NCBI GenBank assembly: GCA_040756075.1
Contig: JBFLZX010000001.1
Span: 28,787-92,786 of the forward strand
Origin: Patescibacteria group bacterium
GTDB lineage: Bacteria; Patescibacteriota; JABMPQ01; JBFLZX01
Length of the DNA stretch: 64,000 nucleotides
Direction of reading: 5' to 3'
The notes below the pieces were generated by a model. That model was not told the origin of the DNA. It saw only the letters and a list, made by a program, of their open reading frames with translations, and did no database searches. The position numbers and the translations under genes were made by a program. Below are positions 5,703-41,479 of this stretch, in pieces (position 1 is the first letter of the stretch; every line of letters begins with the position of its first letter).

Positions 5703-5716
5703 TATTAATAATTAAA

Positions 5717-6424: not shown

Positions 6425-6467
6425 TAAATTTTTTATTACCCACAGACAGAAATTTTTAATTAATAAA

Positions 6468-9888: not shown

Positions 9889-12069
9889 ATGAAAAAAGTT
9901 TTACTAACTGGTGGAGCTGGTTATTTAGGTTCTATTCTATCAAGAAAACTGATTGAGAAAGGCTATCAAGTAAAATGTTTTGATAAGATGTATTTCGGTG
10001 AAAGTTCTATTAAGCAATTAATACCCCATAAGGATTTTGAATTGATTAATGGCGATATCCAAAAATTAGATGCATATTCTAATCTTTTAGATGGTGTTAA
10101 CGCAGTTATACATTTAGCCGGCCTTGCTAATGATCCGACGGCAGAACTCGATCCCGAGCTCACTCAATTGATAAATTATAGATCATCTTATTTATTGGCT
10201 AAGATGGCTAAAGAAAGAGGGGTTGAGCGTTTTATTTATGCTTCAAGTTGTAGCGTCTACGGGAAGGGGCTGTTGGATGTTGTTAGCGAAGAGACGCCAT
10301 TAAATCCTGTATCGGTTTATGCTGAATCAAAAATGCGTGCCGAAAATGAAATTATAAAGATGGTGGATGAAAAATTTTGCCCTATATTTCTAAGACAGGC
10401 TACCCTTTATGGCGTTTCTTGGCGTATGCGTTTTGATTTAGCAATTAATTTAATGGTTTTACACGCAATTCTTAGTAAAAAAATCTTTATTTGGGGCGGT
10501 GGGACTCAGTGGAGGCCTTTTTTGCACGTTGAAGATGCCGCAGAAGCGTTTATAACTTGTTTAGAGCAACCTAGAGATAATGTTGCTGGAAAAATTTATA
10601 ATGTTGGATCTACGGAGAATAATTATAAAATAATAGATTTAGCAAAAATCGTTCAAGACAACATTAAGGGTGTTCAATTAGACATAATTCCTGACAATCC
10701 GGACAAACGCAGCTATAGAGTTTGTTGTGACAAGATTAGCAAGGAATTGAATTGGCATCCCAGGAGAACAATTGAGGATGGTATAAAGGAGCTAATCGGA
10801 TTTATTGAAAAAAATAAACAAAAAACTAATTTCGAAGATTATTATTATTATAATATTAAGACACTTCAGCGTTTCTTAAAAACACCTGTAATAGAGAATG
10901 GCGATCCGATTAGAGCAGACGAGTTACCGTTTAATAGGCCCAGCATAGGTAAAGAAGAGGAAGAAGAAGTTTTAGATACTCTTCGTTCGGGATGGTTAAC
11001 GACTGGTCCAAAAGTTAATACATTAGAAGAAATGTTTAAAAGATATATTGGAGTTAAGCATGCCGTTTGCGTTAGTTCTTGTACTGCGGCCCTACACCTT
11101 AGCTTAGCCGTTTTAGATATTAAGGATGGAGACGAAGTTATTACTTCGCCAATAACATGGCCGGCTACTGCTAATGTAATAGTTCATGTAGGGGCAACTC
11201 CAGTTTTTGCTGATGTGAATCGCCGCACTCTTAATATTGACCCCCAAGAGATCGAATCAAAAATTACAAAAAAAACGAAGGCGATTATACCGGTACATGT
11301 AGCAGGACAGCCATGTGAAATGGATAAAATCAATCAAATTGCTAAAAAATATAATCTTCATGTAATTGAAGATGCGGCACATGCCATAGGCGCTTTTTAT
11401 AATTCGCAACAAATAGGCACAATTAGTGATTTTACTTGTTTTAGTTTTTATCCGATTAAAAATATAACTACTATTGAAGGAGGGCTCGTAGTTACTAATA
11501 ATAATGAATGGGCGAAAAAATTAAGAATTTATAGTTTGCATGGAGTAACTAATGATGCATGGAATAGATATGCTACTAAATCCAAAGGAATTCATGAGGT
11601 CGTATATCCAGGATTTAAATATAATATGAGCGATATACAAGCTTCTCTTGGAATACACCAGCTGAAGAAACTCAAGACATTTATTAAACAAAGAAAAGAA
11701 ATAATAGAGCAATATAATAATAGTTTTAGTCAGATTGAAGAGATTATTTTTCCCCAACCTATTCATAATATACAACATGCAAATCATCTTTATATTATAA
11801 TATTAGATATTGATAAATTGAAGATTGACAGAGATAGGTTTATTGAAGCCTTAAAGAGCGAAAATATAGGCGTGGGCGTTCATTTTCGTTCATTGCATAT
11901 GCAGCCATACTATAGGAATAGATTTAGTTTTAAAGATGATTATTTTCCTTCAGCAAAGTATCTAAGCGATAGAATCCTTTCATTGCCTTTATACCCTGCC
12001 ATGAATCAACGCGATGTAGATACAGTTATAAAAGCCGTTATAAAACTAGTTAATTACTATAGAAAATGA
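9889..12069 (+). CDS. Bifunctional fusion of an NAD-dependent sugar-nucleotide epimerase/dehydratase (extended SDR) and a DegT/DnrJ/EryC1-family PLP aminotransferase
   Basis: N-terminus: LLTGGAGYLGS Rossmann motif and YAESK catalytic dyad. C-terminal roughly 390 aa: DegT-family pattern (SGWLTTGPKV ... CTAALHLSL ... SFYPIKNITTIEGG). A strong AGGAGG RBS lies upstream. Confidence 0.75.
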   Translation: MKKVLLTGGAGYLGSILSRKLIEKGYQVKCFDKMYFGESSIKQLIPHKDFELINGDIQKLDAYSNLLDGVNAVIHLAGLANDPTAELDPELTQLINYRSSYLLAKMAKERGVERFIYASSCSVYGKGLLDVVSEETPLNPVSVYAESKMRAENEIIKMVDEKFCPIFLRQATLYGVSWRMRFDLAINLMVLHAILSKKIFIWGGGTQWRPFLHVEDAAEAFITCLEQPRDNVAGKIYNVGSTENNYKIIDLAKIVQDNIKGVQLDIIPDNPDKRSYRVCCDKISKELNWHPRRTIEDGIKELIGFIEKNKQKTNFEDYYYYNIKTLQRFLKTPVIENGDPIRADELPFNRPSIGKEEEEEVLDTLRSGWLTTGPKVNTLEEMFKRYIGVKHAVCVSSCTAALHLSLAVLDIKDGDEVITSPITWPATANVIVHVGATPVFADVNRRTLNIDPQEIESKITKKTKAIIPVHVAGQPCEMDKINQIAKKYNLHVIEDAAHAIGAFYNSQQIGTISDFTCFSFYPIKNITTIEGGLVVTNNNEWAKKLRIYSLHGVTNDAWNRYATKSKGIHEVVYPGFKYNMSDIQASLGIHQLKKLKTFIKQRKEIIEQYNNSFSQIEEIIFPQPIHNIQHANHLYIIILDIDKLKIDRDRFIEALKSENIGVGVHFRSLHMQPYYRNRFSFKDDYFPSAKYLSDRILSLPLYPAMNQRDVDTVIKAVIKLVNYYRK

Positions 12070-13769
12070 AAAAAGACCCAAGTAAAATACTAATCTTAAT
12101 AATCATCATAGGAGCTATAGTAAGAATTTTAGGCGTAAATTTTGGGCTCCCTTTTATATATCACAATGATGAAAAGATAATTGTGAATTATGCGCTTGCT
12201 TACGGCGCAGGAGACCTGAACCCACATTTCTTTAAGATTCCGCCTTTATTGTCTTATTTTCTATTTTTTCTTTACGGGATTTTTTATATAGCGGGGAAAA
12301 TTTTAGGCATTTTTAATTCTATTAGTGAATTCGGATACCTTTTTTTAAATAATCCAACCAGTTTTTTTATTATTGGTAGATTTTTTGCTGGAGTTATTCC
12401 AGGCATTCTGTCAATTCCCCTGATATTTTATTTAGCAGAAAGAGCATTTTCAAGACGCGTTGCAATATTTGCGTCACTTTTCTTATCGCTTAATTTTTTA
12501 CACGTCAGAGATTCTCACTATATTTATTGCGATATACTCTTAGTTTTTTTTATCCTCCTATTTTTTATATGGCTTTTTAAAATTTTTGAGAAAAATCGAA
12601 CAAGCGACTATTTTGTCACTGCATTAATTATCGGTATAGCTACATCAATAAAATATAACGGAATACTATTATTTATTCCTTTTCTACTTATAATTTTACG
12701 CAATAAAGCCTTTTTTAAAGATAGCAATATAGTTTTGTTTAAAAGATTATTTGGAATAGGGTTATTTTATCCCATCGCTTTATTCTTTAGCAATCCGTAT
12801 ATGTTTCTAGATTATAAATTTTTCTTTAATGATATTTCAAGAATGCCTTTTTATAATCCCGGATTTTTTTATCACTTAAAAGTATCTATTGTTGGAGGAT
12901 GCGGCCTATTAATATTTCTTTTTTCTATAGGCGGCTTTACAATAGCCATTTTTAAGAAACATTTTTTTGCTATTACACTTGGTTTCTTTGGCTTAATTTA
13001 TTATTTTATTGTTGCTAGGCTTAGCCAATCGGCAGAGAGATATATTCTTCCACTTATTCCCGCTATATTATTATTTGCGGCATATTTTCTTGATTACATT
13101 ATTCAGAAAGTAAAAGCAGTTAAAGCGCAATTAATTCTCTCTGTTTTATTTTGTATAATATTACTTACACCTTCTTTGTTTAAAATATATAAATCTGATA
13201 AGCTTTTTACTATGGATGATACGCGTACACAAGCTTATGAATGGATTAAGAAAAACATTCCATTTAATACTAAGATCGCTGTCGATTCAACCGGGTCAAT
13301 ATACCCAGTATTAAGACAATCAAAGGAATTTATTGATATCAATGTAAAAAATTTCAAAAAAGAAAAATTTCGGAAACCAGAAGGTTCTTTAGATTATAAA
13401 ATAGAACTTATAAAAAATAATCCTTATTATGATAATACTTATAGGATTTATTATTTAAAAAAAAGCATAGGCCAAAAAGGATTCTTTTTATCATTCCCTG
13501 AAGTAGAGTTAAATATAGATCAAATCAAGACTAAAGGGATTGAATATATAGTTGTTTCGACTTTACTTATTAGCAATACCGGAAAAAAATTTTTACCAGT
13601 ACTAGAAAAAAATACTAATTTAATTAAAGAATTCTCTCCATATAATAAATCTATTTCTAAATTAATTCCTGATGAGCTTACTGTTTTACCTGCTGCAGCT
13701 TTTACATACCGAGAGTTAAAGGATAGAGACAGGTTTGGTCCAGTAATTAGAATCTATAAGTTTAAGTAG
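12066..13769 (+). CDS. Polytopic membrane glycosyltransferase, GT-C fold (GT39/PMT_2, ArnT-like)
   Basis: Multi-TM protein. A DE-type motif in the first extracytoplasmic loop (HNDEKII) is typical of the ArnT/PMT family. There is a C-terminal soluble domain. Confidence 0.6.
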   Translation: MKKDPSKILILIIIIGAIVRILGVNFGLPFIYHNDEKIIVNYALAYGAGDLNPHFFKIPPLLSYFLFFLYGIFYIAGKILGIFNSISEFGYLFLNNPTSFFIIGRFFAGVIPGILSIPLIFYLAERAFSRRVAIFASLFLSLNFLHVRDSHYIYCDILLVFFILLFFIWLFKIFEKNRTSDYFVTALIIGIATSIKYNGILLFIPFLLIILRNKAFFKDSNIVLFKRLFGIGLFYPIALFFSNPYMFLDYKFFFNDISRMPFYNPGFFYHLKVSIVGGCGLLIFLFSIGGFTIAIFKKHFFAITLGFFGLIYYFIVARLSQSAERYILPLIPAILLFAAYFLDYIIQKVKAVKAQLILSVLFCIILLTPSLFKIYKSDKLFTMDDTRTQAYEWIKKNIPFNTKIAVDSTGSIYPVLRQSKEFIDINVKNFKKEKFRKPEGSLDYKIELIKNNPYYDNTYRIYYLKKSIGQKGFFLSFPEVELNIDQIKTKGIEYIVVSTLLISNTGKKFLPVLEKNTNLIKEFSPYNKSISKLIPDELTVLPAAAFTYRELKDRDRFGPVIRIYKFK

Positions 13770-14555: not shown

Positions 14556-15323
14556 ATGCATAAAAAAACACAATCTACAAAAATAGTTTTGAAAAAAAAT
14601 AAATGGGATAGTTTATTTTTTGGCATAGATATCGCAGACATGTTTTTTCATGGATTTAATTTGCCATCGGAATCAGAAATAAAATTATTATTAGATAGAG
14701 CGTTAAAAAAAGCCTATAATTTTGGTTTTAAATATTTAGTTTTCACGCTTCCCGAAAAATTTATTTTTTTAAGCAGTATCCTTAAGAAACAAGGTTTTAA
14801 GCTTATAGATTTATGTTTTGATTTAAAGTTAGTTATTAATAAAAAGATACCTTTCAAAATATCGTCCGATATCAATATTATTAAAACCTGTATTAGCGAT
14901 ATTCCTTTCATTGAGAGGATAGCGAGTTATTCTTTTAGATTGAGCAGGTTTTATAATCTTAAATTTTCGAATAAAAAATTATCCGACCTTTACCATATTA
15001 TTTGGATTAGAAATTTACTTAAGAGTAGACGGGCTATTTTATTTACGGCTAAATTAGAAGATAGAGTGTGTGGTTTTCTTGCGCTTACATTAAATCGTCA
15101 AGATTGTTCCGGAAGGATAAGCCTTATTGCTACCAAAAAAGATATGCAGGGTATGGGGGTCGGAAATGCATTAGTTTATTATGCTATTAATTGGGCTAGA
15201 AAAAAAAGATTTAAAACGATATATGTAAAAACACAGAAGAATAATCTTAAAGCGCTAAAATTATATAAAAAACATAATTTTAAGATTTTTAATGTAGAAC
15301 GCAAGTATTCTCTTTATTTATGA
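14556..15323 (+). CDS. GNAT-family N-acetyltransferase (WecD-like amino-sugar acetyltransferase architecture)
   Basis: The C-terminus carries a GNAT motif A (MQGMGVGNALVYYAINWARKK). The two-domain layout resembles TDP-fucosamine acetyltransferase. Confidence 0.6.
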   Translation: MHKKTQSTKIVLKKNKWDSLFFGIDIADMFFHGFNLPSESEIKLLLDRALKKAYNFGFKYLVFTLPEKFIFLSSILKKQGFKLIDLCFDLKLVINKKIPFKISSDINIIKTCISDIPFIERIASYSFRLSRFYNLKFSNKKLSDLYHIIWIRNLLKSRRAILFTAKLEDRVCGFLALTLNRQDCSGRISLIATKKDMQGMGVGNALVYYAINWARKKRFKTIYVKTQKNNLKALKLYKKHNFKIFNVERKYSLYL

Positions 15324-16993
15324 TAATGAAAAAATTGATTTTAATATCTTTTTTTATTTTATTTACTATTTTATGTATAGGGACCATTCTTCAAACTTCT
15401 CCTATATGCGATGAAGTCGCGCATCATTTAGCCAGCGGATATTCCTATTTAAAGACAAAAGATTTCAGGATGAATCCAGCCACACCTGCATTTTCAAGGG
15501 AATTAATTGCTGCGTCGCTTTTAGTCCTTAATTTAAGGTTGCCAACGGATCATCCTTCTTGGATTAATAATGATAGCCCTATATTTGGAAGGCTTTTTTT
15601 ATATGAATACAATGATAATCCTGAAAGAATAGTTTTGTTGGCCCGTTTGTCTGTTATGCTTCAATCTATTATTCTTGCATTTTTGGTTTACGTTTGGGCC
15701 AGAAAGGTACACGGTGTAAACGCTGCCGTATTTTCCGTTTTTCTATACTTGTTTTCTCCTGCAATCATAGGAAATTCTACTATAGCTATGGCAGATATCT
15801 CTGTAAGCCTTTTTATATTCTTAACGATTTTTCAGTTTTGGCTTTTTTTACAAAAGAAAACTATAGCTGGCTTAATTTTTACAGGAATATTTTTTGGATT
15901 AGCACAGTCTTCTAAGCATACTGCAATAATACTATTTCCGCTTTTTATTATTTTAGGAATAGTCTATGCTATGAATTCAAGTAATAACAAGGGAGATATG
16001 TTATGGGATATGTGGAAAAAAATAGTTTTAATATGGGGGATTGGTTTTTTTACGTTATGGGCAACTTATTTTTTTGAATTCAAGCCATTGCTTTTAAATG
16101 TTAGTGATATAAACGAAAAAGTAGTATATATTCAGAGATTCTTATCATCGATACCTTTTTTAGACCATAAATATATTATAGATAAAGTAATTTATTTTGC
16201 TAAAAATGTTCCTATTCCGCTGAGCTCTTTTTTTATTTCATTATTTGGAGTATTACATCAATCAAGTATTGGGCAAGGCGTATTCTTTATGGGAGAGCAT
16301 ACTATCAGCGGATCAAGGATTTATTATATCGTCGATTATTTAATAAAGACTCCTATACCACTTTTAATTTTTATTATTCTTTCGATCTTTTTAACACTAT
16401 TTAAGAGGCTATTTAAAACAAAAATCTTAACAAATTGGTTTATTATTTTGCCGATATTTCTTATTTTTGTCGCGTCATCATATTCAAAAATCCAAGGAGG
16501 AATAAGATATCTTTTGCCGATATATCCTTTTCTATTTGTATGGCTAGGAAATATCATAACCGTTAAATTCAACCCATTTAGAAATTTATTTTATAAAATC
16601 ATTATTTTAATAATATGTTTATGGTATTTTTGGATTGCATTAAAGACATTTCCGGATTATCTATGTTATTTTAATGAAGCTGTAGGTGGATTAAATGGCT
16701 TCGGTCATAAAATAACACATGATTGTGATTGGGGGCAAGATCTTAAAGCGCTTGGTAAATTTTATAAAAAAAATGATCTTAATGAAATTACGCTTTCCTA
16801 TTTTGGTACGGCAGACCCATCTTTTTACGGAATTAATTATAAAGAGTTATCTAAGGAAGAGCAAGACGTACCGGGAAAGAAAGTTTATGCGATAAGCATA
16901 CGTTTTCTTGATTCTGCGAAATGGACAAGAAATATTCCGCCATCTGCAAAAGCAGGCCATTCTATATTCATTTATGACTTTAGAGTTAATTGA
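15320..16993 (+). CDS. Polytopic membrane glycosyltransferase, GT-C fold (GT39/PMT_2, ArnT-like)
   Basis: DE motif near the N-terminus (ICDEVAHHLASGYSY). Multiple TM helices and a C-terminal soluble domain. Confidence 0.65.
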   Translation: MIMKKLILISFFILFTILCIGTILQTSPICDEVAHHLASGYSYLKTKDFRMNPATPAFSRELIAASLLVLNLRLPTDHPSWINNDSPIFGRLFLYEYNDNPERIVLLARLSVMLQSIILAFLVYVWARKVHGVNAAVFSVFLYLFSPAIIGNSTIAMADISVSLFIFLTIFQFWLFLQKKTIAGLIFTGIFFGLAQSSKHTAIILFPLFIILGIVYAMNSSNNKGDMLWDMWKKIVLIWGIGFFTLWATYFFEFKPLLLNVSDINEKVVYIQRFLSSIPFLDHKYIIDKVIYFAKNVPIPLSSFFISLFGVLHQSSIGQGVFFMGEHTISGSRIYYIVDYLIKTPIPLLIFIILSIFLTLFKRLFKTKILTNWFIILPIFLIFVASSYSKIQGGIRYLLPIYPFLFVWLGNIITVKFNPFRNLFYKIIILIICLWYFWIALKTFPDYLCYFNEAVGGLNGFGHKITHDCDWGQDLKALGKFYKKNDLNEITLSYFGTADPSFYGINYKELSKEEQDVPGKKVYAISIRFLDSAKWTRNIPPSAKAGHSIFIYDFRVN

Positions 16994-17083
16994 GGTTATT
17001 TCATTTAGTTAGCTGAAGTATAATAATTATTAGTTTAAGTTGTTATGATGCTAATAATAGTTAATGATAGCTAAATATAGTTA

Positions 17084-17111
17084 TTGACAATTGATAAGCA
17101 TATGGTATACT
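17084..17111 (+). promoter_or_regulatory. Sigma70-like promoter (TTGACA-16 bp-TATACT) driving the long downstream operon
   Basis: TTGACA at 17084..17089, a 16-nt spacer, and TATACT at 17106..17111. It lies in the only sizeable intergenic gap (16994..17164), about 55 nt upstream of the ATG at 17165. Confidence 0.5.
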
Positions 17112-17164
17112 TATAACATATATTCTCCAAGTATTTTCTTAGTTAATATATAATTATTTTATAT

Positions 17165-19318
17165 ATGAATAATATAAAAAATATAATATTTCTTTCTATT
17201 GATGCACTGCGTTTTGATATGTTAAGATATGCAGGTGGCTACCAATTAAATACTACGCCTTCCATCGACTTTCTATGCAAAAATGGCATATATTGTGCTA
17301 ATGCATTTACTCCGGGAAATCCTACTCAGTTCGGATTTCCTTCTATATTTACCTCAACTATGCCTTTAGATTTTGGTTCATATAATGAAGGGATAAAGAA
17401 TAGGCCTATTTCTTTCCCCGAGATTCTTAAGAAAAAAGGTATTAAGACATGTGGCATGACTAATAATGTGAATATAAATAATTTCTTTTATTATGACCGC
17501 GGGTTTGATGAATTCTATGAATTTTTTGATATTGAACTCTTTTGGAATAGTATGAAGAAGAATTATTTTTATTACTACCGAGAATTGTATAAAAAAAATA
17601 TAATTAATAAACAAGCTTATTATGAGATATTAAGATTCTGGTTAAAAAAATGTTTTTTATATATGATGGATTTTTGTAATAAGAGAGATAATGCAATAGA
17701 AATCCAGTGTGATTATATTGCAGAATGGCACGATTATGAAATCCTCAAAAAAGCAATCTCAAGCAAAATTAAAAATTTAATAAATAATTTCGGGAATTAC
17801 CATAATGATAATTTCGATGATCTCTTAAATAAAAATTTATATGATTTTCTCGGTATTGTATCAACTAAGCCCGCAATAGGTAAGTTTATTAATCATATTG
17901 ATAAGAATATTGCAAAATTATTAAAGAATATTTATATCCAATTTGATGAAAGGTATTCGAGAAAGATTAAAGGAGATAAAATTGCAAAGAATATTATTAA
18001 TTGGATAGATAAAAATTCAATTAATCCATTTTTTATTTGGGCGCATTTTATGGATTTGCATGATGAAAATTATATATCAAAATCTTTTGGTTTACCCCAC
18101 AAGCTCGCTTCTTTTATAGCAAAAAGAATTTTTTTACGGGATACTTATAGAGGAAACCTGCGTTATGATTTTTCTCTAAACTTTGTAGATAGGGCGGTAG
18201 GTTGTATTATTAAGTATTTAAGAAATAAGGATCTTTTGGATAGTTCTTTAATAGTCATCTGTGGAGATCATGGGCATAGGACGGGTAAGCCTTATAGGAA
18301 AGGTTCTTCCGCCGCCGCTTTCTATGAAGAGGATATAAAAGTACCCTTAATATTTTATAACCCTAAATTCAGACCAAAGAGAATTGAAGATCTTTGTTGT
18401 TTAAGAGATATAGCTCCTAGTATTTTTTCATTTCTAGGTATTGAACAAGTGGCTGAATTTGAAGGAAAATCTGTCATTGATAGATCTGTTAAAGAGAGAG
18501 ATTATGTTATATTGGAAAATAACTTTAGAGGGCCTTGCGATTTCGACAATAAGCCCATATATCTTGCCGTCAGAACAGATAAATATAAGTATGTGCATCG
18601 CGAATCGATTAGTTTTAACGATCCATGGTCAAAGCATAAACAAGAGTTATATAATCTTAATGATGATCCAAAAGAATATAATAATTTATACGATCATCCC
18701 GAATACGTTAATGTTTTAAATAAGTTAGAAAAAATAGCAGTACAGAGAATTCAGGACATAAGATCATCGCATGGTAAGAATAATTTAGGGCATACCGATG
18801 GCAAAGGTTTTGTTTTATGGTTAACAGGATTATCTGGATCAGGGAAAACTACATACGCAAATAGGCTTTATACGCTTTTTGGCATTAAAAATTTTAAGAT
18901 ATTGGATGGAGATGAATTTAGGCAAATGTTTAGTGCAGATTTAGGTTATACATATGAAGATAGAATTTTGAATATCAAGCGAATTGCTTATTATGCGCAT
19001 ATTATATCGAGCTTAGGAATAAATGTCATAGTTGCTAATATAGCACCTTTTTATGAGGCCCGGGATTTTATAAGGCAGAATATTCATAATTATATTCAGG
19101 TTTATCTTAAAGCCGATATAGAGGTATTAAAGATTAGGGACCCTAAAGGATTATATGCTAGATCGAAAGCAAGAAAAATCGGAAATGTTATCGGGATACA
19201 TGAGCCATATCAAGAACCAAGAACTCCTGATGTCGTTATTGATACAGGACAGGAGAGCGTCGAGGATGGCGTTCAGAAAATAATTACTTATCTACGCAAT
19301 AAAAAGATAATTCAATAG
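17165..19318 (+). CDS. Fusion of an alkaline-phosphatase-superfamily 'sulfatase-like' domain with an adenylyl-sulfate (APS) kinase
   Basis: N-terminal roughly 520 aa: sulfatase/AP fold (LSIDALRFDML, TPGNPTQ, CGDHGH) but without a C/S-x-P-x-R formylglycine motif. C-terminal roughly 180 aa: CysC-like (LWLTGLSGSGKTT Walker A plus an APS-kinase-like body). Confidence 0.65.
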   Translation: MNNIKNIIFLSIDALRFDMLRYAGGYQLNTTPSIDFLCKNGIYCANAFTPGNPTQFGFPSIFTSTMPLDFGSYNEGIKNRPISFPEILKKKGIKTCGMTNNVNINNFFYYDRGFDEFYEFFDIELFWNSMKKNYFYYYRELYKKNIINKQAYYEILRFWLKKCFLYMMDFCNKRDNAIEIQCDYIAEWHDYEILKKAISSKIKNLINNFGNYHNDNFDDLLNKNLYDFLGIVSTKPAIGKFINHIDKNIAKLLKNIYIQFDERYSRKIKGDKIAKNIINWIDKNSINPFFIWAHFMDLHDENYISKSFGLPHKLASFIAKRIFLRDTYRGNLRYDFSLNFVDRAVGCIIKYLRNKDLLDSSLIVICGDHGHRTGKPYRKGSSAAAFYEEDIKVPLIFYNPKFRPKRIEDLCCLRDIAPSIFSFLGIEQVAEFEGKSVIDRSVKERDYVILENNFRGPCDFDNKPIYLAVRTDKYKYVHRESISFNDPWSKHKQELYNLNDDPKEYNNLYDHPEYVNVLNKLEKIAVQRIQDIRSSHGKNNLGHTDGKGFVLWLTGLSGSGKTTYANRLYTLFGIKNFKILDGDEFRQMFSADLGYTYEDRILNIKRIAYYAHIISSLGINVIVANIAPFYEARDFIRQNIHNYIQVYLKADIEVLKIRDPKGLYARSKARKIGNVIGIHEPYQEPRTPDVVIDTGQESVEDGVQKIITYLRNKKIIQ

Positions 19319-19320
19319 TT

Positions 19321-20421
19321 ATGATGAATAAGAAAAATAGAATTCAAATTAATTTTGATCATTTATTATACTTAAGGGGTATTAATGAGGGTTCGTTAAA
19401 TCCTTTAAAAGGGTTTTGTAATAGGTTGGATTACGAATCTATTCTTAAGACGATGCGTTTTAAAAATGGTTATCCTTGGCCTATCCCAATAACTTTAGAA
19501 ATAGACGAGGAACAAGCAAAATCTATCAAGAAATTTAATGAAGCAGAATTAATTCAGGAAGATGGGATTAATTGCGCTATTTTAATGATAACAGATATAT
19601 TTAAGATTGATTTACAAAGATATATCAAAGAAATATTTAAAACAGATTCATTGAATCATCCAGGAGTAAAGAAAGAGATAAAAAAACCCCTATGGAGAAT
19701 AGCAGGAGACATTAGATTTAAACGCTCATTTAAACCCATAAGCAGTAAATATTATCAGAAGCCCGATGAGGTCATAAAAGAAATAAAGAAGAGGGGATGG
19801 AATACTGTTGCAGGATTTCAAACAAGGAATCCAATTCATCGAGCACATGAGCATCTTCAGCGTATCGCAATGGAGGTATGTGATGGTTTGCTAATTCAAC
19901 CGCTTATAGGGGCTAGAAAAAATGATGATTTTTCTTTTCCGGCTATCTTGGAATCATATAATATCATGATAAACCATTTTTATCCTAGAGATAAAGTGAT
20001 TTTTACCTCCTTAGAGCTGCCTATGCATTACGCAGGTCCACGGGAAGCCATTTTACATGCTTTAATCAGAAAAAATTATGGCTGTACGCATTTTATAGTA
20101 GGAAGGGATCATGCTGGGGTTGGTAATTTTTATGGTAGATACGAAGCGCAAGAAATTGCAAATAGCTTTAAAGACTTAGGTATAGAAATACTTAGATTAA
20201 AAAGCCCTTTTTTCTGTAAAAAATGTGCCAAGGTAGTATCTGAAAATACATGCACACATTATTATTCAGATAAAGATTCTGTTTGCGAAATAAACGGTTC
20301 AAATATACGAAATATGATAAATAATAATAAAATCCCACCTAAATTTATAATGAGGAAAGAAATAAGTAAAATGCTTTTTGAGTATAAGCAAAAAAAAATG
20401 TTATTAAATGAATGGAGATGA
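19321..20421 (+). CDS. sat: Sulfate adenylyltransferase (ATP sulfurylase)
   Basis: Canonical QTRNPIHRAHE motif and GRDHAGVG motif. Confidence 0.8.
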   Translation: MMNKKNRIQINFDHLLYLRGINEGSLNPLKGFCNRLDYESILKTMRFKNGYPWPIPITLEIDEEQAKSIKKFNEAELIQEDGINCAILMITDIFKIDLQRYIKEIFKTDSLNHPGVKKEIKKPLWRIAGDIRFKRSFKPISSKYYQKPDEVIKEIKKRGWNTVAGFQTRNPIHRAHEHLQRIAMEVCDGLLIQPLIGARKNDDFSFPAILESYNIMINHFYPRDKVIFTSLELPMHYAGPREAILHALIRKNYGCTHFIVGRDHAGVGNFYGRYEAQEIANSFKDLGIEILRLKSPFFCKKCAKVVSENTCTHYYSDKDSVCEINGSNIRNMINNNKIPPKFIMRKEISKMLFEYKQKKMLLNEWR

Positions 20422-20422
20422 T

Positions 20423-21385
20423 ATGTTTAAGATTATTGTAACCTTAGGCCCCTCAATATTGAAAGGGGATACATTAAAAATGCTTCCAAGAGAGCATCCT
20501 TATATATTTAGACTTAATGGTTCGCATATATCATATAATTATGCCAGAGATTTGGTTAAAAAAATACGTAAAGCAGTAAAAGAAGCGGTTATTTTACTTG
20601 ATTTGCCGGGTAATAAGGTAAGAACAACCAACTTGGAGAGGCCTATTAATCTTATGGTTGGTAAAAAATTTTGCTTAACCGACGATATGATAAATCATAA
20701 GATATTTTTTGATAGGGTTAAAGTTGGAGATGTTATTAGGGCCCATGATAGTTTATTAAAATTTGAGGTTATTAATAAGAAGAAGAAGTCCGTAAGTTTT
20801 ATATCCCATTCAAACGGGATTCTTAATAAAAATAAAGGTCTTCATCTTTGCGGATTAACCGATGGTATAGATTTTTTAACAGAACAAGATAAGGTTCTTT
20901 TAGAGATAGCAAAGAATCTTAGGATAGATTGTGTTGGAGTTTCGTATGTTAGGGATAAGCAAGATATTCTTCTTATTAGGGATTATATGCGTAAGAAAGA
21001 TTTTATTCCTGATATTTTTGTTAAGATCGAGACAAAAAGAGCTATAGAAAATCTTAATTCTATTTTTAGCGAAGCGAATAATTTTATTCTTGATAGAGGG
21101 GATCTTTCAAGTGAAGTAGGTATTGAGAATATTTCATTGTTTCAACGTAAGATAATCGTTGAGGCGAAGAAAAAGAATCGTAATCTTTTTCTGGCAACAC
21201 AGTTTTTAAAAAGCATGATTCATAATCCATTGCCATTTATAGCAGAAGTAAATGATTTGCATAATGTGCTTGCAGATGGAATATCTGGATTGCAGCTTTC
21301 TGATGAGACTGCGATAGGAAAATATCCCCTAGAAGCGATTAATACAATAATAGCCATAAGAAAGAATATAGAAAAGTTACTATAA
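20423..21385 (+). CDS. Pyruvate-kinase-family protein comprising the catalytic barrel only, with no C-terminal regulatory domain
   Basis: PK signatures IIVTLGPS, FRLNGSH, ILLDLPGNKVRT, KIETK, DRGDLS and ATQFLKSM. I prefer the start at 20423 (GGAGA RBS, directly after the sat stop) over 20408. Confidence 0.6.
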   Translation: MFKIIVTLGPSILKGDTLKMLPREHPYIFRLNGSHISYNYARDLVKKIRKAVKEAVILLDLPGNKVRTTNLERPINLMVGKKFCLTDDMINHKIFFDRVKVGDVIRAHDSLLKFEVINKKKKSVSFISHSNGILNKNKGLHLCGLTDGIDFLTEQDKVLLEIAKNLRIDCVGVSYVRDKQDILLIRDYMRKKDFIPDIFVKIETKRAIENLNSIFSEANNFILDRGDLSSEVGIENISLFQRKIIVEAKKKNRNLFLATQFLKSMIHNPLPFIAEVNDLHNVLADGISGLQLSDETAIGKYPLEAINTIIAIRKNIEKLL

Positions 21386-21401
21386 AAAATAAGGAGTAAA
21401 T

Positions 21402-21632
21402 ATGGAAATCAAAGAAGGCGGAGTTTATACTTTACAAGAAGTCCAAAAGTTATTAAAGGTAAGCCCAAGTACATCGTTAAGGCTTGTTAAAAATGGTTTT
21501 ATTCATGCGGCCAAGGTAGGAAAGCAATATCGTATTCTCGGAAAAGAACTTTTACGTCTTTTATCTCCACAGCTTGAAGATAAAGTTGGTAAACTTTACA
21601 ATAAAGGCAGGGCTTGGTTGTACGAGGATTAA
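21402..21632 (+). CDS. Small excisionase/MerR-superfamily helix-turn-helix DNA-binding protein
   Basis: YTLQEVQKLLKVSPSTSLRLVKNGFIHAAKVGKQYRI fits the Xis-type HTH_17 pattern. An AAGGAG RBS lies upstream. Confidence 0.55.
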   Translation: MEIKEGGVYTLQEVQKLLKVSPSTSLRLVKNGFIHAAKVGKQYRILGKELLRLLSPQLEDKVGKLYNKGRAWLYED

Positions 21633-21648
21633 AAAAAAGGAGATATTG

Positions 21649-23055
21649 ATGAAGAGCAGAATAAAATCTTTAATTATAAGTAAAAATTCTTGCATCAAAG
21701 ATGCTATAAAGGGCATAATGAAAAATGGTTATGGAGTTGTTTTTATAGTAGACGAAAACGGTCGATTTATTAGTGTTATAAACGATGGCGATATCAGAAG
21801 GGGTATTCTTAAAGGGAAGCAGTTGGCGGATAATGTTATGACGATATCTTCAGATACGCCTTTTTATGTGTTAGATAATATGTCGAAAGAAGAGATAGCG
21901 GGGTTCATCAATAAGAAAAATAATTTAAAAAATAAAATTCAATATGGGGGTACCCTTAAGGTACCAGTTTTAGATAAGAATAAGTTAATTACCAATGTTT
22001 TGTTTATTTCCATAAATGACAGCGGAGTTTGCATTATTGATCATGACTGTAGAAGCCCTAATAAAATGCGAGAAATTAAAAAAAATAAAAATATATTAGT
22101 TACCGGCGGAGCAGGCTATCTTGGTTCAATTCTATGCAAGAAACTACTAGATAATGATTATAAGGTCAAGGTATTAGATAATCTGATGTATGGTGATCAT
22201 GGGATAAGGCAATTTCTTAATAATCCTAATTTTAAGCTCATCAAGGGAGATATTAGAAATATTCAAATCGTTGTAGAATCTATAAAAGACGTTGATGCAG
22301 TTATTCATCTTGCTGCAATAGTAGGGGATCCTGCTACTACCAAATTTCCCCAAGAGTCTATCGATGTAAATTATTTAGCAACTAAAGCAATTGTTGAAGT
22401 TTGTAAATATTACCAGGTCAATAGATTTATATTTGCTTCTACTTGTAGTGTTTATGGTTATCAATCCGAAGAGGATAGCGGATTAACAATTAATTCTAAG
22501 CTGAACCCGCTTTCTTTATATGCAAAGATGAAGCTTGAGTCAGAGAAAGCCATTCTTTCATTAGCTGATGATTATTTTTCACCCTTAGTTTTAAGAATGG
22601 CAACTCTATACGGTTTATCTCCTAGGATGAGATTTGATTTAGCGGTTAATTTCCTTTCTGCCGAAGCCGTAATTAAAAAGGAAATAGTAATTTTTGGCGG
22701 CAGTCAATGGAGGCCATTCCTGCATGTAGAGGATGCCGCAAATGCTTATGTTAAATGCCTCGAATTACCTTTTAGGAAAGTACGGAAAAAAATATTAAAT
22801 TTAGGCCAAAATAATCAAAATTATCAGATGCTTCGCGTAGGAAGAATGATAAAGAAGCTAATCCCGGGAACGAAATTAGGGATATCTAAAAAAGAAGTTG
22901 ATTCGAGAAATTATAAAGTATTATTTGATGATACCGTAAAGAACATAGATTTTCATGCCGATTATAAAGTATCAGACGGAATTGCAGAAATTAGAGATCG
23001 CATCTTAGAGGGAGATTTTATTGATTATAGAGATAAAAAATATAGGAATGTTTGA
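21649..23055 (+). CDS. CBS-domain pair fused to an NAD-dependent sugar-nucleotide epimerase/dehydratase (paralogue of the N-domain of 9889..12069)
   Basis: N-terminus: CBS-like (GVVFIVDENGRFISVINDGDIRRGI). C-terminus: ILVTGGAGYLGS and YAKMK. It shares the ATLYG.S.RMRFDLA.N and QWRPFLHVEDAA blocks with the 9889 ORF. The start is taken at the ATG 21649, which follows an AAGGAG RBS. Confidence 0.65.
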   Translation: MKSRIKSLIISKNSCIKDAIKGIMKNGYGVVFIVDENGRFISVINDGDIRRGILKGKQLADNVMTISSDTPFYVLDNMSKEEIAGFINKKNNLKNKIQYGGTLKVPVLDKNKLITNVLFISINDSGVCIIDHDCRSPNKMREIKKNKNILVTGGAGYLGSILCKKLLDNDYKVKVLDNLMYGDHGIRQFLNNPNFKLIKGDIRNIQIVVESIKDVDAVIHLAAIVGDPATTKFPQESIDVNYLATKAIVEVCKYYQVNRFIFASTCSVYGYQSEEDSGLTINSKLNPLSLYAKMKLESEKAILSLADDYFSPLVLRMATLYGLSPRMRFDLAVNFLSAEAVIKKEIVIFGGSQWRPFLHVEDAANAYVKCLELPFRKVRKKILNLGQNNQNYQMLRVGRMIKKLIPGTKLGISKKEVDSRNYKVLFDDTVKNIDFHADYKVSDGIAEIRDRILEGDFIDYRDKKYRNV

Positions 23056-23534: not shown

Positions 23535-24719
23535 ATGATAAATAAGAGAATAATTCCTTATGGAAAACAGTGGTTATTTAAAGAAGACATTAATTCAGTT
23601 GCTAATGTTTTAAGGTCCGATTGGATTACTCAGGGGCCTAAAATTAAAGCCTTTGAAGATGCAATTTGTAACTATTGTGGTTGTAAATATGCAGTAGTGG
23701 TTTCTTCCGGAACAGCCGCATTGCATATTGCCTGTTTGGCAGCAGGGCTTAAAAAAGGAGATCAGGCTATCACAACTCCGTTAACTTTTTTGGCTACAGC
23801 AAATTCTGTATTATACAGCGGGGCAGAAGTAATTTTTGCAGATATAGATTATGCTACCGGTAATATTGATACGAGACAGATTGAGAAAAAAATAACAAGA
23901 AAAACTAAAGTATTGTTGCCGGTAGATTTTGCAGGACTGCCTTGTGACTTATCAGAAATAAAAAAAATTGCAAAACGATATAAACTTTTGGTGATAGAAG
24001 ATTCTTGTCATGCTTTAGGCGCAACCTATAAAAATTCAAAGATAGGCGATTGTAATTATTCCGATATGACAATATTTAGTTTTCATCCTGTAAAACATAT
24101 TACAACAGGAGAAGGCGGGGCCATCACAACAAATTCTAAGAAGTTATATAATAGGCTTATTGCGCTAAGGAACCATGGGATGTGTAAGAAAGCGCAAACA
24201 TTAAAGAAAGAGGGTTCTTGGTATTACGAGATGAACTATCTTGGTTTTAATTATAGAATTACCGATTTACAATCTGTTTTAGGATTAAGTCAAATTAATA
24301 AATTACCTTTATTCATAAAGCGTAGAAATTTGATTGCCAATAGATATGACCAAGCATTCTTTTGTTTTAGAGATCTTCTAACTTTACCATCGATAAATTA
24401 TGGAGATAGAACACATGCTTGGCATTTGTATACGCTTAGATTAAACATGGCTAAAAAATATATTTCGCGTAGACAATTATTTGAATTGTTGCATAAAGAA
24501 GGAGTAAGAGTGCAAGTTCATTATATACCTATAACGCGGCAACCTTATTACCGAGAAAAAGGTTTTAAGAGCTCACTCTTTCCAAATGCTGAAAAATATT
24601 ATGAGAATGTTATTTCATTGCCAATCTATCCTAAAATGGACAATTCGGATATTGATTATGTTATAGGCGTTGTAAGCAAGATAATAGATAAATATTGTAG
24701 ACAAGGAGGCAGTAAGTGA
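23535..24719 (+). CDS. DegT/DnrJ/EryC1-family PLP-dependent sugar aminotransferase
   Basis: WITQGPKIKAFE, SSGTAALHIA and SFHPVKHITTGEGG are typical of this family. Confidence 0.75.
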   Translation: MINKRIIPYGKQWLFKEDINSVANVLRSDWITQGPKIKAFEDAICNYCGCKYAVVVSSGTAALHIACLAAGLKKGDQAITTPLTFLATANSVLYSGAEVIFADIDYATGNIDTRQIEKKITRKTKVLLPVDFAGLPCDLSEIKKIAKRYKLLVIEDSCHALGATYKNSKIGDCNYSDMTIFSFHPVKHITTGEGGAITTNSKKLYNRLIALRNHGMCKKAQTLKKEGSWYYEMNYLGFNYRITDLQSVLGLSQINKLPLFIKRRNLIANRYDQAFFCFRDLLTLPSINYGDRTHAWHLYTLRLNMAKKYISRRQLFELLHKEGVRVQVHYIPITRQPYYREKGFKSSLFPNAEKYYENVISLPIYPKMDNSDIDYVIGVVSKIIDKYCRQGGSK

Positions 24720-26185
24720 GGGTACTTTTAGCCTATCTTAGTGATACTGGCATAGGAGAAATACCCATAGGTTTATCTATAATTCAGGCTTGCTTGAGAC
24801 AGGCAGGGCATAGTACGTGCATCTTTGATACCACCTTTTTTAAACAAACTGATATAAGGAGTATTAATGAGAACTTGGGTGTGCATAAACCTGTTAACTT
24901 AGAAGATTATGGGGTAAGCCTTACTTATAGCGACATCGATGATGAGTTTTTATCTGTAGTAAAAAATTTTAATCCGGATCTTATAGGCTTTTTTACTACT
25001 AGTTACAATTTTTTTCAAGTATTAAATATGATTAAGTTGATTCGTCGGAATAATATAAATACTCAAGTAATACTAGGGGGTCCTCATACGACAGTTGCAC
25101 CCGAAGAGAGTATTAATTATCCGGAAATTGATATGCTTTGCGTGGGAGAAGGAGAAGAGGCAATTATCGAATTATGCAAGAAGATGCAAGTATCAAATAG
25201 GATCGATAATATAGAAAATATTTGGATTAAGCATGACGGCAGGGTCTACAGAAATCAACCAAGGCCTTTTATATGCATGGATAAGGTTCCCTGTCCTGAT
25301 GCAGATAGTTTTTCCGATATGCATTTTTTTAAACCTTTTTCAGGTAAAGTATATCGTATGGGGCATATAGAAATAAGCAGAGGTTGTCCTTTTAGTTGCA
25401 CATATTGCATTAATGCATATATGCGTAACTTGTATAAGGCTAAAAATGAAGGTAATTATCATCGTGAAAAGAGCATAGATAAAGCTATATCGGACATAAA
25501 AATATTGGTTAAGAGGCACAATCTTGAAATGTTGCGTTTCTGGGATGAAACTTTTTTATTTATGAAGGAGTCTAGATTGAATGAATTTAGTAAGAGATAT
25601 AAAAAAGATATTAATCTCCCTTTTATAATTTCAACACACCCGGCTACTATTAATGAGAAAAGAATAGGGATTATGAAGGATATGGGTTGTGTTGCTATTA
25701 GCGTTGGAATAGAGAGCGGAAACGACCGTATCCGTAGGGCGCTTTTAGGTCGTAAAATTAGCAACGAACAAATAATTAGAGCTTTTGATATTATTAAGTC
25801 ATCTGGAATAAGGGTTACTTCGTATAACATGATTGGCTTACCGTTTGAAACACGTAAAAATATCTTTGAGACCATAGACTTAAATCGAAGAGTTAAGGTG
25901 GATACAGCTGGCCCAAGTTTTTTTTATCCTTATCCGGGGACTAAATTAAGAGAAGTTTGTTTAGAGAGTAATTTTATAGATTCAGAGCTTAAACCAGCAG
26001 AGAATAATGTTGACACCATACTCAATATGCCACAAATTAAGCATAAGGAATTAAAAGGACTGCATAAGACTTTTACTCTTTATATAAAATCACCTAAATG
26101 GTTATTTCCTCTGATTAAGCTTTGCGAGTTAGATAACTATATATCTAATAGAATATTCAAGTTTTTAATCAGAAGATATTGCTAA
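24716..26185 (+). CDS. B12-binding radical SAM protein
   Basis: N-terminal B12-binding-like domain. Radical SAM motif SRGCPFSCTYCIN. Confidence 0.75.
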   Translation: MRVLLAYLSDTGIGEIPIGLSIIQACLRQAGHSTCIFDTTFFKQTDIRSINENLGVHKPVNLEDYGVSLTYSDIDDEFLSVVKNFNPDLIGFFTTSYNFFQVLNMIKLIRRNNINTQVILGGPHTTVAPEESINYPEIDMLCVGEGEEAIIELCKKMQVSNRIDNIENIWIKHDGRVYRNQPRPFICMDKVPCPDADSFSDMHFFKPFSGKVYRMGHIEISRGCPFSCTYCINAYMRNLYKAKNEGNYHREKSIDKAISDIKILVKRHNLEMLRFWDETFLFMKESRLNEFSKRYKKDINLPFIISTHPATINEKRIGIMKDMGCVAISVGIESGNDRIRRALLGRKISNEQIIRAFDIIKSSGIRVTSYNMIGLPFETRKNIFETIDLNRRVKVDTAGPSFFYPYPGTKLREVCLESNFIDSELKPAENNVDTILNMPQIKHKELKGLHKTFTLYIKSPKWLFPLIKLCELDNYISNRIFKFLIRRYC

Positions 26186-27269: not shown

Positions 27270-28060
27270 TGAATATTAAAGTAAATAGAATAGGCTGTAT
27301 TATTCAAGCACGAATGAATTCACATAGGCTTTTTGGTAAGGTATTGGTAAAAATTTGCGGGAAATCTATATTAGAGCACATTATTGAACGAATAAAAGAA
27401 TCGAAATATATTCAAGAAATTATTATTGCAACTTCTTCTTCTGGTATAAATGACCCAATAAGAGACCTCGGCAATAAAATTAATATACCTGTTTTTAGCG
27501 GCAGCGAGGACGATGTATTAAGTAGATATATAGAGGTTAGTAAAACATATAATTTTAGAATTATAGTTCGGGTTACAGCGGATGATCCGCTTATTGACAT
27601 ACAAGAAGCGGATAAGATGATAAAAATACTTGAAGAAAAAAAGCTAGACTATGTAACAAATTCAGATATCAGCTTGGATGATTATAATACAGAACTTCCA
27701 GCCGGGTTCCAGGTGGAAGTTTTATCCAGCGATGCTCTATTAAGCTTGGAAGATAAAGATCTGACACAATTGCACAGAGAACATGTAACTCTTTATATCG
27801 AGCAATACGCAGAGAAATATAATATTAGATTTATTAAACCGCGAGAGAACATACGTTACAAGGGATTACGTTTAACAGTAGATACGCCAGAAGATCTAGG
27901 ATTAATGAATAAGATATACCTTGAGTTATATAAAGGTAGGCCTATTCTTAATGAAAAAGTTGTAGAGTTAATTAAAAAGAATCCTAGCTTATCTTTATTA
28001 AACAGTTCTATAAAAACAAATTACAGTTATTTAGACGGAATAAGGGTTAAAAAATTATGA
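27269..28060 (+). CDS. Cytidylyltransferase, SpsF/PseF-like (CMP-nonulosonic acid synthetase family)
   Basis: GCIIQARMNSHRLFGKVL in a GT-A-like nucleotidyltransferase fold. It is the classic SpsE-SpsF neighbour of the NeuB-like gene. Confidence 0.6.
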   Translation: MNIKVNRIGCIIQARMNSHRLFGKVLVKICGKSILEHIIERIKESKYIQEIIIATSSSGINDPIRDLGNKINIPVFSGSEDDVLSRYIEVSKTYNFRIIVRVTADDPLIDIQEADKMIKILEEKKLDYVTNSDISLDDYNTELPAGFQVEVLSSDALLSLEDKDLTQLHREHVTLYIEQYAEKYNIRFIKPRENIRYKGLRLTVDTPEDLGLMNKIYLELYKGRPILNEKVVELIKKNPSLSLLNSSIKTNYSYLDGIRVKKL

Positions 28061-37608: not shown

Positions 37609-37669
37609 TTTTTATCCAGTTGTTGAAATATTAAGAATAATAATAGTGTTTGGAAAGGAGTTTTGGATT

Positions 37670-38395: not shown

Positions 38396-38420
38396 ACGAA
38401 ACCACATCGAAGGAGAAAAA

Positions 38421-39176: not shown

Positions 39177-39185
39177 AAGGAGAAA

Positions 39186-39968: not shown

Positions 39969-39972
39969 CTAT

Positions 39973-41478: not shown

Positions 41479-41479
41479 G

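Follow-up and report, generated by a model that had tools for sequence, protein, structure and literature searches.

The 64-kb stretch of DNA analyzed here (the window) has a low GC content (~31%), carries practically all of its genes on the + strand, and contains the three-gene unit that is the subject of this study. The unit encodes (i) a 717-aa protein that joins an N-terminal sulfatase-fold domain (the N-domain) to a C-terminal adenosine 5'-phosphosulfate (APS) kinase, (ii) a 366-aa Sat-type ATP sulfurylase, and (iii) a pyruvate kinase (PK) whose gene overlaps that of Sat by 14 nt. It is set off from its neighbours by gaps of 171 nt upstream and 188 nt downstream (Table 1). A preliminary description of this DNA had reported the fusion and the adjoining ATP sulfurylase; open reading frame (ORF), Pfam, and NCBIfam analyses found both, with their coordinates, exactly as noted, and added the third gene, which had been overlooked. 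We propose that the genes at 17165-21385 constitute a compact, self-contained glycan-sulfation unit.

The fusion protein matches NCBI entry MEW6407105.1 at 100% identity, an entry annotated as 'adenylyl-sulfate kinase' in a Patescibacteria-group metagenome-assembled genome (MAG). The fusion is not an assembly artefact, because a second, 57% identical fusion (P0002), followed by the same Sat and PK genes, occurs in an independent sample (locus L001). In unfused homologs, the alkaline phosphatase (AP)-fold gene and the kinase gene abut or overlap at the point of the interdomain linker (e.g. 9974-11617 and 11617-12156 in L015). The promoter-like site 5' of the fusion gene is the best in 16800-21800, and is suggestive only, as the regional site total (33, versus 28.7 in shuffles) is not above chance.

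Table 1. Features of the three-gene unit; positions are those of the window and residue numbers those of the 717-aa protein.
Feature	Position	Strand	Basis or details
Promoter-like site TTGACA-16-(TG)TATACT	17084..17111	+	in the 171-nt gap; 11/12 matches, extended -10 TG
Fusion gene (717 aa)	17165..19318	+	
Arylsulfatase/phosphonate monoester hydrolase (PMH)-fold domain (AP superfamily), residues 1-535	17165..18769	+	Pfam, AlphaFold2 (AF2) model, Foldseek, family alignment
Beta-strand 1 motif SIDALRFD with metal-ligand Asp13	17195..17218	+	aligns to sulfatase 'tDDqr'
Nucleophile motif TPGNP-T54-QFGFPSIFTSTMPL	17309..17368	+	Thr54 codon 17324-17326; aligned to the formylglycine (FGly) Cys/Ser of 6hr5 and 7oz8
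H294-F-M-D297-L-H299-D motif	18044..18064	+	H299 aligned to 'DpHs' of 9ihk (sulfatase 'D-P-H' catalytic His)
GDHGH, metal ligands D368 and H369	18263..18277	+	aligns to sulfatase 'gDnG/DHG'
Flexible interdomain linker, residues 536-546	18770..18802	+	pLDDT <50 at residues 538-545
APS kinase domain, residues 547-717	18803..19318	+	P-loop GLSGSGKTT 18827-18853; LDGDEFR 18902-18922; DPKGLY lid 19139-19156
ATP sulfurylase (PUA_2 and ATP-sulfurylase)	19321..20421	+	Pfam, NF003166, motifs QTRN/HRAH/GRDHAG
Barrel-only PK (A and B domains, without C-terminal domain)	20408..21385	+	PF00224 5.3e-57; alignment to E. coli PykF

The sulfatase-fold domain and its family

Residues ~1-535 match Pfam Sulfatase (PF00884; 1.4e-32, in two stretches) and SGSH_C, and no NCBIfam model reaches its cut-off on the N-domain. 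The AF2 model of the domain has pLDDT values mostly >90; its best Foldseek matches are PMH and S1 sulfatases (E ~1e-18), not LtaS, EptA, or NPP. Neither a signal peptide nor a transmembrane segment is found in the fusion protein (max KD19 = 1.53), which begins directly at beta-strand 1, and this, together with the fusion to a cytoplasmic kinase, indicates that the N-domain is cytoplasmic.

The active site was mapped through sequence and profile alignment. Thr54 occupies the formylglycine position both in pairwise alignment to 6hr5 and in profile alignment to 7oz8, such that Thr54-Q-F-G-F lies opposite C-A-A-S-R of the former and S-T-P-A-R of the latter, with Q-F-G-F in place of x-P-x-R and Phe58 at the position of the CxPxR Arg. 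Pairwise and profile alignments to solved S1 sulfatases reveal no C/S-x-P-x-R motif near Thr54, in agreement with the preliminary description, and the TPGNPTQ and GDHGH motifs that it had pointed out are located at residues 49-55 and 367-371, respectively. The second Asp of the sulfatase 'DD' pair is Ala. The metal set of the AP superfamily is kept, with D13 (on beta-strand 1), the nucleophile T54, and the D368-H369 pair all near-invariant or invariant. On these alignments, the N-domain is not a sulfatase.

A word-indexed search returned one further fusion (P0002) and ~20 stand-alone proteins of 530-555 aa with end-to-end matches, the latter from Omnitrophota, Thermodesulfobacteriota, Planctomycetota, and others, while an exhaustive profile search yielded at least 150 clusters at 50% identity whose representatives score 298 bits or more over the full length. 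Most family members are stand-alone proteins. Haloarchaeal matches (L022-L027), which cover only the first ~120 residues, were left out of the family. Conservation was counted across a dereplicated set of 50 members that reaches down to 24% identity. Forty-eight of them have Thr as the nucleophile and two have Ser, in no case followed by x-P-x-R; H299, D342, D368, H369, and Y73 are invariant; D13 is kept in all 48 sequences covering the position; and D297 and H294 occur in 48 and 43 members, respectively. Judged by this sequence conservation, the catalytic centre of the family is constrained and not decayed. In one member, P0268, the domain is fused to TPR and methyltransferase regions.

The N-domain shares with FGly-dependent S1 sulfatases and PMH (6hr5, 7oz8, 4uph, 2w8s, and 2vqr), its best matches in both sequence and structure, the same fold including an SGSH_C-like subdomain, the first metal Asp, the D-H metal pair, and the 'D-x-H' histidine. 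Unlike these enzymes, it has Thr for FGly, lacks x-P-x-R, does not conserve the second 'DD' Asp or the sulfate-binding Lys, carries a large helical insertion at roughly residues 120-290, is predicted to be cytoplasmic, and is encoded in biosynthetic clusters beside donor synthesis, whereas theirs are degradative loci. In LtaS, EptA/MCR-1, and OpgB/MdoB, a Thr activated by metal holds the head group in a covalent enzyme intermediate before passing it to a glycan or lipid (ping-pong). These transferases belong to the same superfamily, share the Thr nucleophile, and provide a mechanistic template, LtaS (2w8d) being matched by the family profile at 8e-17. These enzymes, however, are membrane-anchored with an extracytoplasmic catalytic domain and use phospholipid donors, whereas the N-domain family appears soluble and cytoplasmic, falls in the sulfatase/PMH clade, and is associated with nucleotide-activated donors.

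Donor synthesis in the unit and across loci

The C-terminal domain of the fusion matches APS_kinase (PF01583) at residues 547-693 (1.6e-38, 132.6 bits). In isolation it exceeds the curated cut-off of TIGR00455 (apsK; 158.5 versus 138.7 bits) and scores lower (141.3 bits) on NF004041, which bears out its first assignment as an APS kinase, as opposed to another P-loop kinase. All other kinases compared peak on NF004041, the Cj1415-type ones especially, and those linked to phosphoramidate or phosphonate pathways reach 172-215 bits on NF004041 and 109-146 bits on TIGR00455, the reverse of the window's domain. By these model scores, none of the kinases compared comes closer to a canonical APS kinase than the window's domain, and given the scores and the adjacent bona fide Sat, the substrate of that domain would be APS and not, for example, cytidine diphosphate (CDP)-amidate. 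The Sat ORF scores 409.1 bits on NF003166 (cut-off 387) and 8.7e-81 in Pfam.

The window PK (325 aa) matches PF00224 only, scores 235 bits on TIGR01064 (cut-off 306), and aligns to residues 5-334 of E. coli PykF. It keeps the catalytic motifs RLNGSH (RLNxSH), D65...R72, K206-I-E208, RGDL, ATQ, and SDETA, and lacks the C-terminal allosteric/tetramerisation domain. Barrel-only PKs of 314-346 aa constitute a large group of their own, one member of which (P0371) is fused to APS kinase. A PK, full-length or barrel-only, is directly beside Sat in every Sat-containing locus, frequently with overlap (the window, L009, L015, L017-L020, L030, L056, L057, L059, L063, L089, L094, and L095). Because the trio of Sat, PK, and APS kinase is also found without any AP-fold gene (L094 and L095), it can be regarded as a general cassette for supply of 3'-phosphoadenosine 5'-phosphosulfate (PAPS). 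In vitro, PAPS synthesis essentially fails without PK and phosphoenolpyruvate (PEP) due to a dead-end APS kinase-ADP-APS complex (PMC9885120); by analogy, the natural PK probably regenerates ATP and removes ADP. We found no earlier description of Sat-PK coupling.

For the wider genomic context, 95 loci were gathered from genomes and metagenomes, screened with reference proteins, and dereplicated. Partners within ~10 kb were counted in the 30 distinct loci flanked by 8 kb or more, which come from Patescibacteria, Omnitrophota, and Alphaproteobacteria. An APS-kinase-like gene is present in 18 of these loci, Sat in 14, the full Sat, PK, and APS-kinase trio in 13, a glutamine kinase in four, and PEP mutase in three; any nucleotide-donor cassette is found in 21/30. 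The AP-fold and kinase genes are immediate neighbours or overlap in L015, L039, L052, L056, L004, and L082, and the fusion in the Candidate Phyla Radiation (CPR) looks like the end point of a pre-existing gene coupling. Clustering of all neighbours revealed no other unknown family recurring beside the AP-fold gene; NeuB and nonulosonic acid (NulO)-type dehydratases are the commonest non-donor neighbours (14-15/38 loci).

Of the four module proteins, it is the AP-fold protein that diverges most in 88 of 91 locus pairs, with a median identity of 29% (39% for APS kinase, 45% for Sat, and 36% for PK). Divergent AP-fold paralogs, two or three per locus, occur in L028 and L093, where they often alternate with methyltransferases, and the AP-fold gene is also found paired or fused with methyltransferases. 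The fastest divergence, the paralogs, and the methyltransferase pairing suggest transferase-like evolution.

While the preliminary description was right to place the window's unit in the context of PAPS synthesis, it overlooked the phosphoramidate and phosphonate pathways that accompany homologs. Sets composed of a glutamine kinase, Peptidase_C26/glutamine amidotransferase (GATase), NTP_transferase, and CysC-like kinase in L004, L069, and L093 match Cj1418/Cj1417/Cj1416/Cj1415 of Campylobacter jejuni. The sets of PEP mutase-cytidylyltransferase, Ppd, and alcohol dehydrogenase (ADH) in L002, L021, and L038 are phosphonate-tailoring cassettes (PMC6697681, PMC8942020), and unexplained 'adenylsulfate kinase' and 'sulfatase' genes in phosphonate clusters have been reported by Li and Horsman (PMC8942020). 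In L002 and L005, homologs lie beside either a PEP-mutase-cytidylyltransferase/Ppd/ADH cassette or an NTP-transferase, and no gene resembling APS kinase is found within 10 kb; in the absence of this 3'-kinase, AP-fold function would be tied to nucleoside monophosphate (NMP)-X donors and not to the 3'-phosphate as such.

In the O-methyl phosphoramidate (MeOPN) pathway of C. jejuni, a CysC-family kinase makes a PAPS-like 3'-phosphorylated nucleotide donor, and the genetically defined MeOPN transferases sit with methyltransferases (PMC11800397). The two acceptor-specific transferases (Cj1421/Cj1422), beside the methyltransferase-like Cj1419 and Cj1420, can be likened to the AP-fold paralogs, and methyltransferases likewise occur alongside homologs of the N-domain (e.g. 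L028). Complete copies of the pathway (Cj1418 glutamine kinase, Cj1416, Cj1417, and the Cj1415 CysC-like 3'-kinase) lie beside homologs in L004, L069, and L093. The window, in contrast, encodes neither a glutamine kinase nor a GATase, its donor genes being Sat and a canonical APS kinase. Because Cj1421/Cj1422 were originally annotated as glycosyltransferases (PMC9561416), they are probably not AP-fold, and the N-domain family is probably distinct from them.

Several further observations concern these pathways. L093 (1074-13734; Rhodospirillales MAG; = L020/L064/L080) encodes three AP-fold paralogs, Sat-PK, a Sulfotransfer_1 gene, a complete glutamine kinase/GATase/NTP-transferase set, and a single CysC-like kinase of the Cj1415 type (NF004041 180 versus TIGR00455 120 bits); either this one kinase accepts both APS and CDP-amidate, or unphosphorylated APS is the donor for some of the transferases. 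Loci with a glutamine kinase, GATase, and Sat-PK without a nucleotidyltransferase had raised the idea that Sat adenylylates phosphoramidate, which was ruled out when L093 proved to have an NTP_transferase just past the earlier locus edge. Homologs of the Cj1418-type glutamine kinase are very numerous, with 53-57% identity across phyla, and are often fused to an APS-kinase-like domain (P0092, P0098, P0118, P0123, P0125, and others), and phosphoramidate glycan modification may be far wider than Campylobacter. Complete MeOPN-type cassettes are found in flagellin/flagellar loci of Clostridium sp. MB40-C1 (L034 7530-13717), next to a faint sulfotransferase-fold protein, and of Pseudomonas sp. BN411 (L033 10001-18256), next to a Glyphos_transf protein; these two neighbours, which have other folds, may be phosphoramidate transferases, and the two strains are cultured and tractable. 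In L018 (alphaproteobacterial MAG), the gene for a Na_H_Exchanger-family membrane protein (5643-6875) is directly upstream of an APSK-Sat-PK-AP module, and its product may be a dedicated anion (sulfate?) transporter.

Pfam scans (Sulfotransfer_*) detected no sulfotransferase-fold protein in the fusion, among the window's 56 + strand ORFs that encode 120 aa or more, or in L001, L015, L018, L028, and L030. An iterative sulfotransferase hidden Markov model (HMM) built from two seeds is insensitive and recovered only three already known hits, and conclusions rest instead on the Pfam scans of the window, L015, and L018. L094 provides a comparison. It is a NulO cluster with NeuB, CBS-NTP-transferase, CMP-synthetase, and a Wzx sharing 35% identity with that of the window; its APSK-PK fusion and Sat match their counterparts in the window at 43-47% identity, a canonical Sulfotransfer_1 gene overlaps the kinase gene, and no AP-family gene is found even at E <= 10. 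Taken together, the window and L094 suggest displacement, with the AP fold and the sulfotransferase fold occupying the same slot beside PAPS genes.

Proposed reaction and competing explanations

We propose, with a probability of roughly 0.55, that the N-domain is a Thr-nucleophile transferase that moves sulfuryl from PAPS made in situ to a glycan. Sat would convert ATP and sulfate to APS, which the C-terminal kinase domain of the 717-aa protein would phosphorylate to PAPS, while the barrel-only PK would use PEP to return kinase-released ADP to ATP, thereby pulling an unfavourable pathway and avoiding the kinase-ADP-APS dead end. The N-terminal arylsulfatase-fold domain would be the consumer of PAPS: Thr54, replacing formylglycine beside H299 and the metal site formed by D13, D368, and H369, would be activated by metal and attack the sulfur of PAPS, PAP (3'-phosphoadenosine 5'-phosphate) would depart, and the covalent sulfo-Thr enzyme would pass sulfuryl to a sugar hydroxyl. 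The acceptor would most likely be a nonulosonic-acid glycan, or its precursor, produced by the surrounding cluster. The window also encodes NeuB, three cytidine monophosphate (CMP)-synthetase-like proteins (CTP_transf_3), DegT aminotransferases, WbqC, PIG-L, and a NeuC-like epimerase, and gives a weak Glyphos_transf match; the choice of a NulO glycan as probable acceptor follows from these NulO genes and from the frequency of NeuB/NulO-type neighbours across loci. Homologs in other phyla might catalyze the same reaction with 3'-phospho-CDP-phosphoramidate or CMP-phosphonates. We tentatively extend the proposal, as a possible rather than a probable generalization, to a widespread class of cytoplasmic AP-superfamily 'head-group transferases', with the N-domain as its founding example, in which a metal-activated Thr would move sulfuryl (from PAPS), phosphoramidyl (from 3'-phospho-CDP-amidate), or phosphonyl (from CMP-phosphonates) groups onto surface glycans, especially nonulosonic acids.

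A transferase coupled to donor synthesis, as the preliminary description had put forward, is the best available reading of the linkage to donor cassettes across phyla, the divergence and paralogs of the AP-fold gene, the lack of any canonical sulfotransferase detected in the window, and the exchange seen in L094. The fusion of AP fold and kinase in two independent CPR loci, with abutting genes in many unfused loci, is a product-to-substrate arrangement that also favours this proposal. The phosphoglycerol/phosphoethanolamine transferase of LtaS/EptA/MdoB type that had been offered alongside it fits poorly with a protein predicted to be soluble and cytoplasmic, whose fold neighbours are FGly sulfatases and PMH.

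Canonical PAPS sulfotransferases act by in-line transfer, with no covalent intermediate and no metal. The Sulfotransfer_1/2/3 enzymes would share donor and role with the N-domain, whereas the folds are unrelated (P-loop-like versus alkaline phosphatase). Arylsulfate sulfotransferase (ASST) is independent of PAPS and works by ping-pong through a covalent sulfo-enzyme, using a beta-propeller fold, a His nucleophile, and aryl sulfate donors in the periplasm. It thus differs from the N-domain in fold, nucleophile, donors, and location, and offers a precedent for the ping-pong sulfuryl transfer proposed here. Bifunctional PAPS synthases (Sat-APS kinase) and CysNC likewise fuse the kinase to a pathway partner and encode both PAPS steps together; in the window, however, the partner fused to the kinase is the presumed consumer of PAPS rather than the sulfurylase, and the unit includes a dedicated PK.

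A number of observations weigh against a sulfuryl transferase. To our knowledge, characterised Thr-nucleophile enzymes of the AP superfamily act at phosphorus, not sulfur. Profile alignments show that the sulfate-binding Arg of true sulfatases is not conserved in the family and that no sulfate-binding Lys is conserved at the K-x-H or post-DHG positions. A crude Neighbor-Joining tree of the 50 members does not separate sulfate-, phosphoramidate-, and phosphonate-linked members, although enzymes reading the transferred group might be expected to sort by donor cassette, and nine of the 30 long loci have no recognisable donor cassette. P0219 fuses a family member to a canonical Sulfotransfer_1/3 domain, P0275 fuses one to a LicD-family domain, and a Sulfotransfer_1 gene occurs alongside the AP-fold family in L004, L021, and L093; in these five cases the AP-fold domain may be accessory, as their other domains or genes could be the transferase. 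Outside the Pfam-scanned loci, sulfotransferases were sought by tblastn and a three-sequence HMM, which is insensitive.

The main rival explanation, which we consider unlikely, builds on several of these points. It casts the AP-fold protein as a by-product scavenger, a 3'-phosphatase acting on PAP or pCp to relieve product inhibition, with another protein as the true transferase. Such a role would account for an APS-kinase-like 3'-kinase being the most constant partner, whether the pathway is of sulfate, phosphoramidate, or phosphonate, for a tree that is not split by donor type, and for the sulfotransferase domain in P0219 and the sulfotransferase-fold proteins of L004, L021, and L093, and it would be in line with the classical phosphoryl-transfer chemistry of Thr-nucleophile AP enzymes. 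PAP does inhibit sulfotransferases at micromolar levels (PMC9885120). A 3'-phosphatase fused to a 3'-kinase, however, would risk a futile cycle from PAPS back to APS, and neither several divergent paralogs per locus nor the fastest divergence in the module is expected of an enzyme with one invariant small substrate. The homologs in L002 and L005 accompany nucleotidyltransferase cassettes with no 3'-kinase within 10 kb, and the LicD partner in P0275 releases CMP, for which no 3'-phosphatase is needed. On the scavenging view, moreover, the dedicated PAPS modules of the window, L001, L015, L018, and L030 would have no transferase to serve, while L094 runs the same module with a sulfotransferase and without an AP-fold gene.

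It is quite unlikely, in our estimation, that the N-domain transfers some other head group, namely a phospho-type group from a CDP-/CMP-linked phospho-alcohol or phosphonate, with the kinase fusion serving co-regulation or scaffolding. Chemistry at phosphorus has precedent among Thr AP-superfamily enzymes and close relatives (~40% identical) sit with phosphonate or phosphoramidate cassettes, but no PEP mutase, glutamine kinase, GATase, or LicC-type nucleotidyltransferase is found in the window, Sat and APS kinase are the sole donor pathway in the operon, and the kinase domain resembles canonical APS kinases rather than those of the Cj1415 type. The three CTP_transf_3 genes and the weak Glyphos_transf match could be taken to supply such a donor; CTP_transf_3 enzymes, however, make CMP-ulosonic acids, which are glycosyl and not head-group donors. 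A hydrolytic role, in which an FGly-independent sulfatase or phosphodiesterase, or else a hydrolase of APS/PAPS, would edit glycan or regulate donor level, would agree with the nearest sequence and fold relatives (S1 sulfatases and PMH) all being hydrolases. We regard it as very unlikely: a hydrolase would have little reason to be cytoplasmic and fused to donor synthesis, neither the FGly motif nor the sulfate-binding Arg and Lys have been kept, and the family lies consistently within biosynthetic clusters. Sulfatase mutants with Ser in place of FGly trap a sulfo-enzyme unable to eliminate sulfate, and Ser or Thr at this position would thus suit transfer over ester hydrolysis. Lastly, loss of the canonical sulfatase motif might indicate a decayed, inactive scaffold merely tethering or regulating the kinase; with metal ligands, nucleophile, and His299 essentially invariant in 50 members down to 24% identity, most of the family being stand-alone, this is hardly to be credited.

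The surrounding glycan cluster and implications

Several other features of the window's glycan cluster are of note. Membrane glycosyltransferases of the GT-C type (PMT_2/ArnT-like) are encoded at 3490-5007, 12066-13769, 15320-16993, and 55064-56632, together with YfhO (6390-8732) and GT87-like (94-1296) proteins; this GT-C set is unusually large for a reduced CPR genome and suggests that much glycosylation takes place outside the cytoplasm. Five B12-binding radical SAM enzymes (2031-3428, 24716-26185, 28057-29508, 39973-41478, and 49428-50879), of a type that also adjoins the AP-fold gene in L001, L002, and L004, suggest unusual C-methylation or similar sugar tailoring. A second sugar-acid sub-cluster at 37646-43702 may provide another route to an ulosonic acid, independent of NeuB; besides two CTP_transf_3 genes, it encodes an HpcH/HpaI aldolase, a 2-hydroxyacid dehydrogenase, a cyclase-family protein, and a HAD phosphatase. 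A 726-aa protein (9889-12069) fuses an NAD-dependent sugar epimerase/dehydratase to a DegT-type aminotransferase, and the same fusion starts L001. Within the glycan cluster there is also a homolog of the RNA ligase RtcB (52015-53505; 281 bits), an odd site for an RNA repair enzyme, followed directly by a 207-aa P-loop protein with weak similarity to thymidylate kinase (53507-54130).

Literature searches returned nothing relevant on a PAPS-dependent sulfotransferase of the AP superfamily, nor on one using related donors, and on sulfated nonulosonic acids in bacteria only environmental surveys of extracellular polymeric substances (EPS) were found. The unit appears to combine PAPS synthesis with a transferase that is a repurposed sulfatase fold. 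If this is true, a swap of formylglycine for threonine would have made a transferase of a sulfatase scaffold, a repurposing at the level of mechanism; sulfotransferases would gain a third mechanistic type (sulfatase fold, covalent sulfo-Thr), and sulfation a new class of enzymes that are now annotated as 'sulfatase' or 'adenylyl-sulfate kinase'. The family would also be a candidate for the enzymes that attach phosphonates and phosphoramidates to surface glycans, the missing transferase in many such pathways, whose phosphonyl-tailoring steps have been called 'enigmatic' (PMC6697681). The cassette of Sat, APS kinase, and minimal PK mirrors the enzyme cocktail with which chemists make PAPS, and could serve biocatalytic sulfation. 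For the organisms themselves, the proposal predicts that sulfated nonulosonic-acid glycans would be found on Patescibacteria, Omnitrophota, and marine Alphaproteobacteria.

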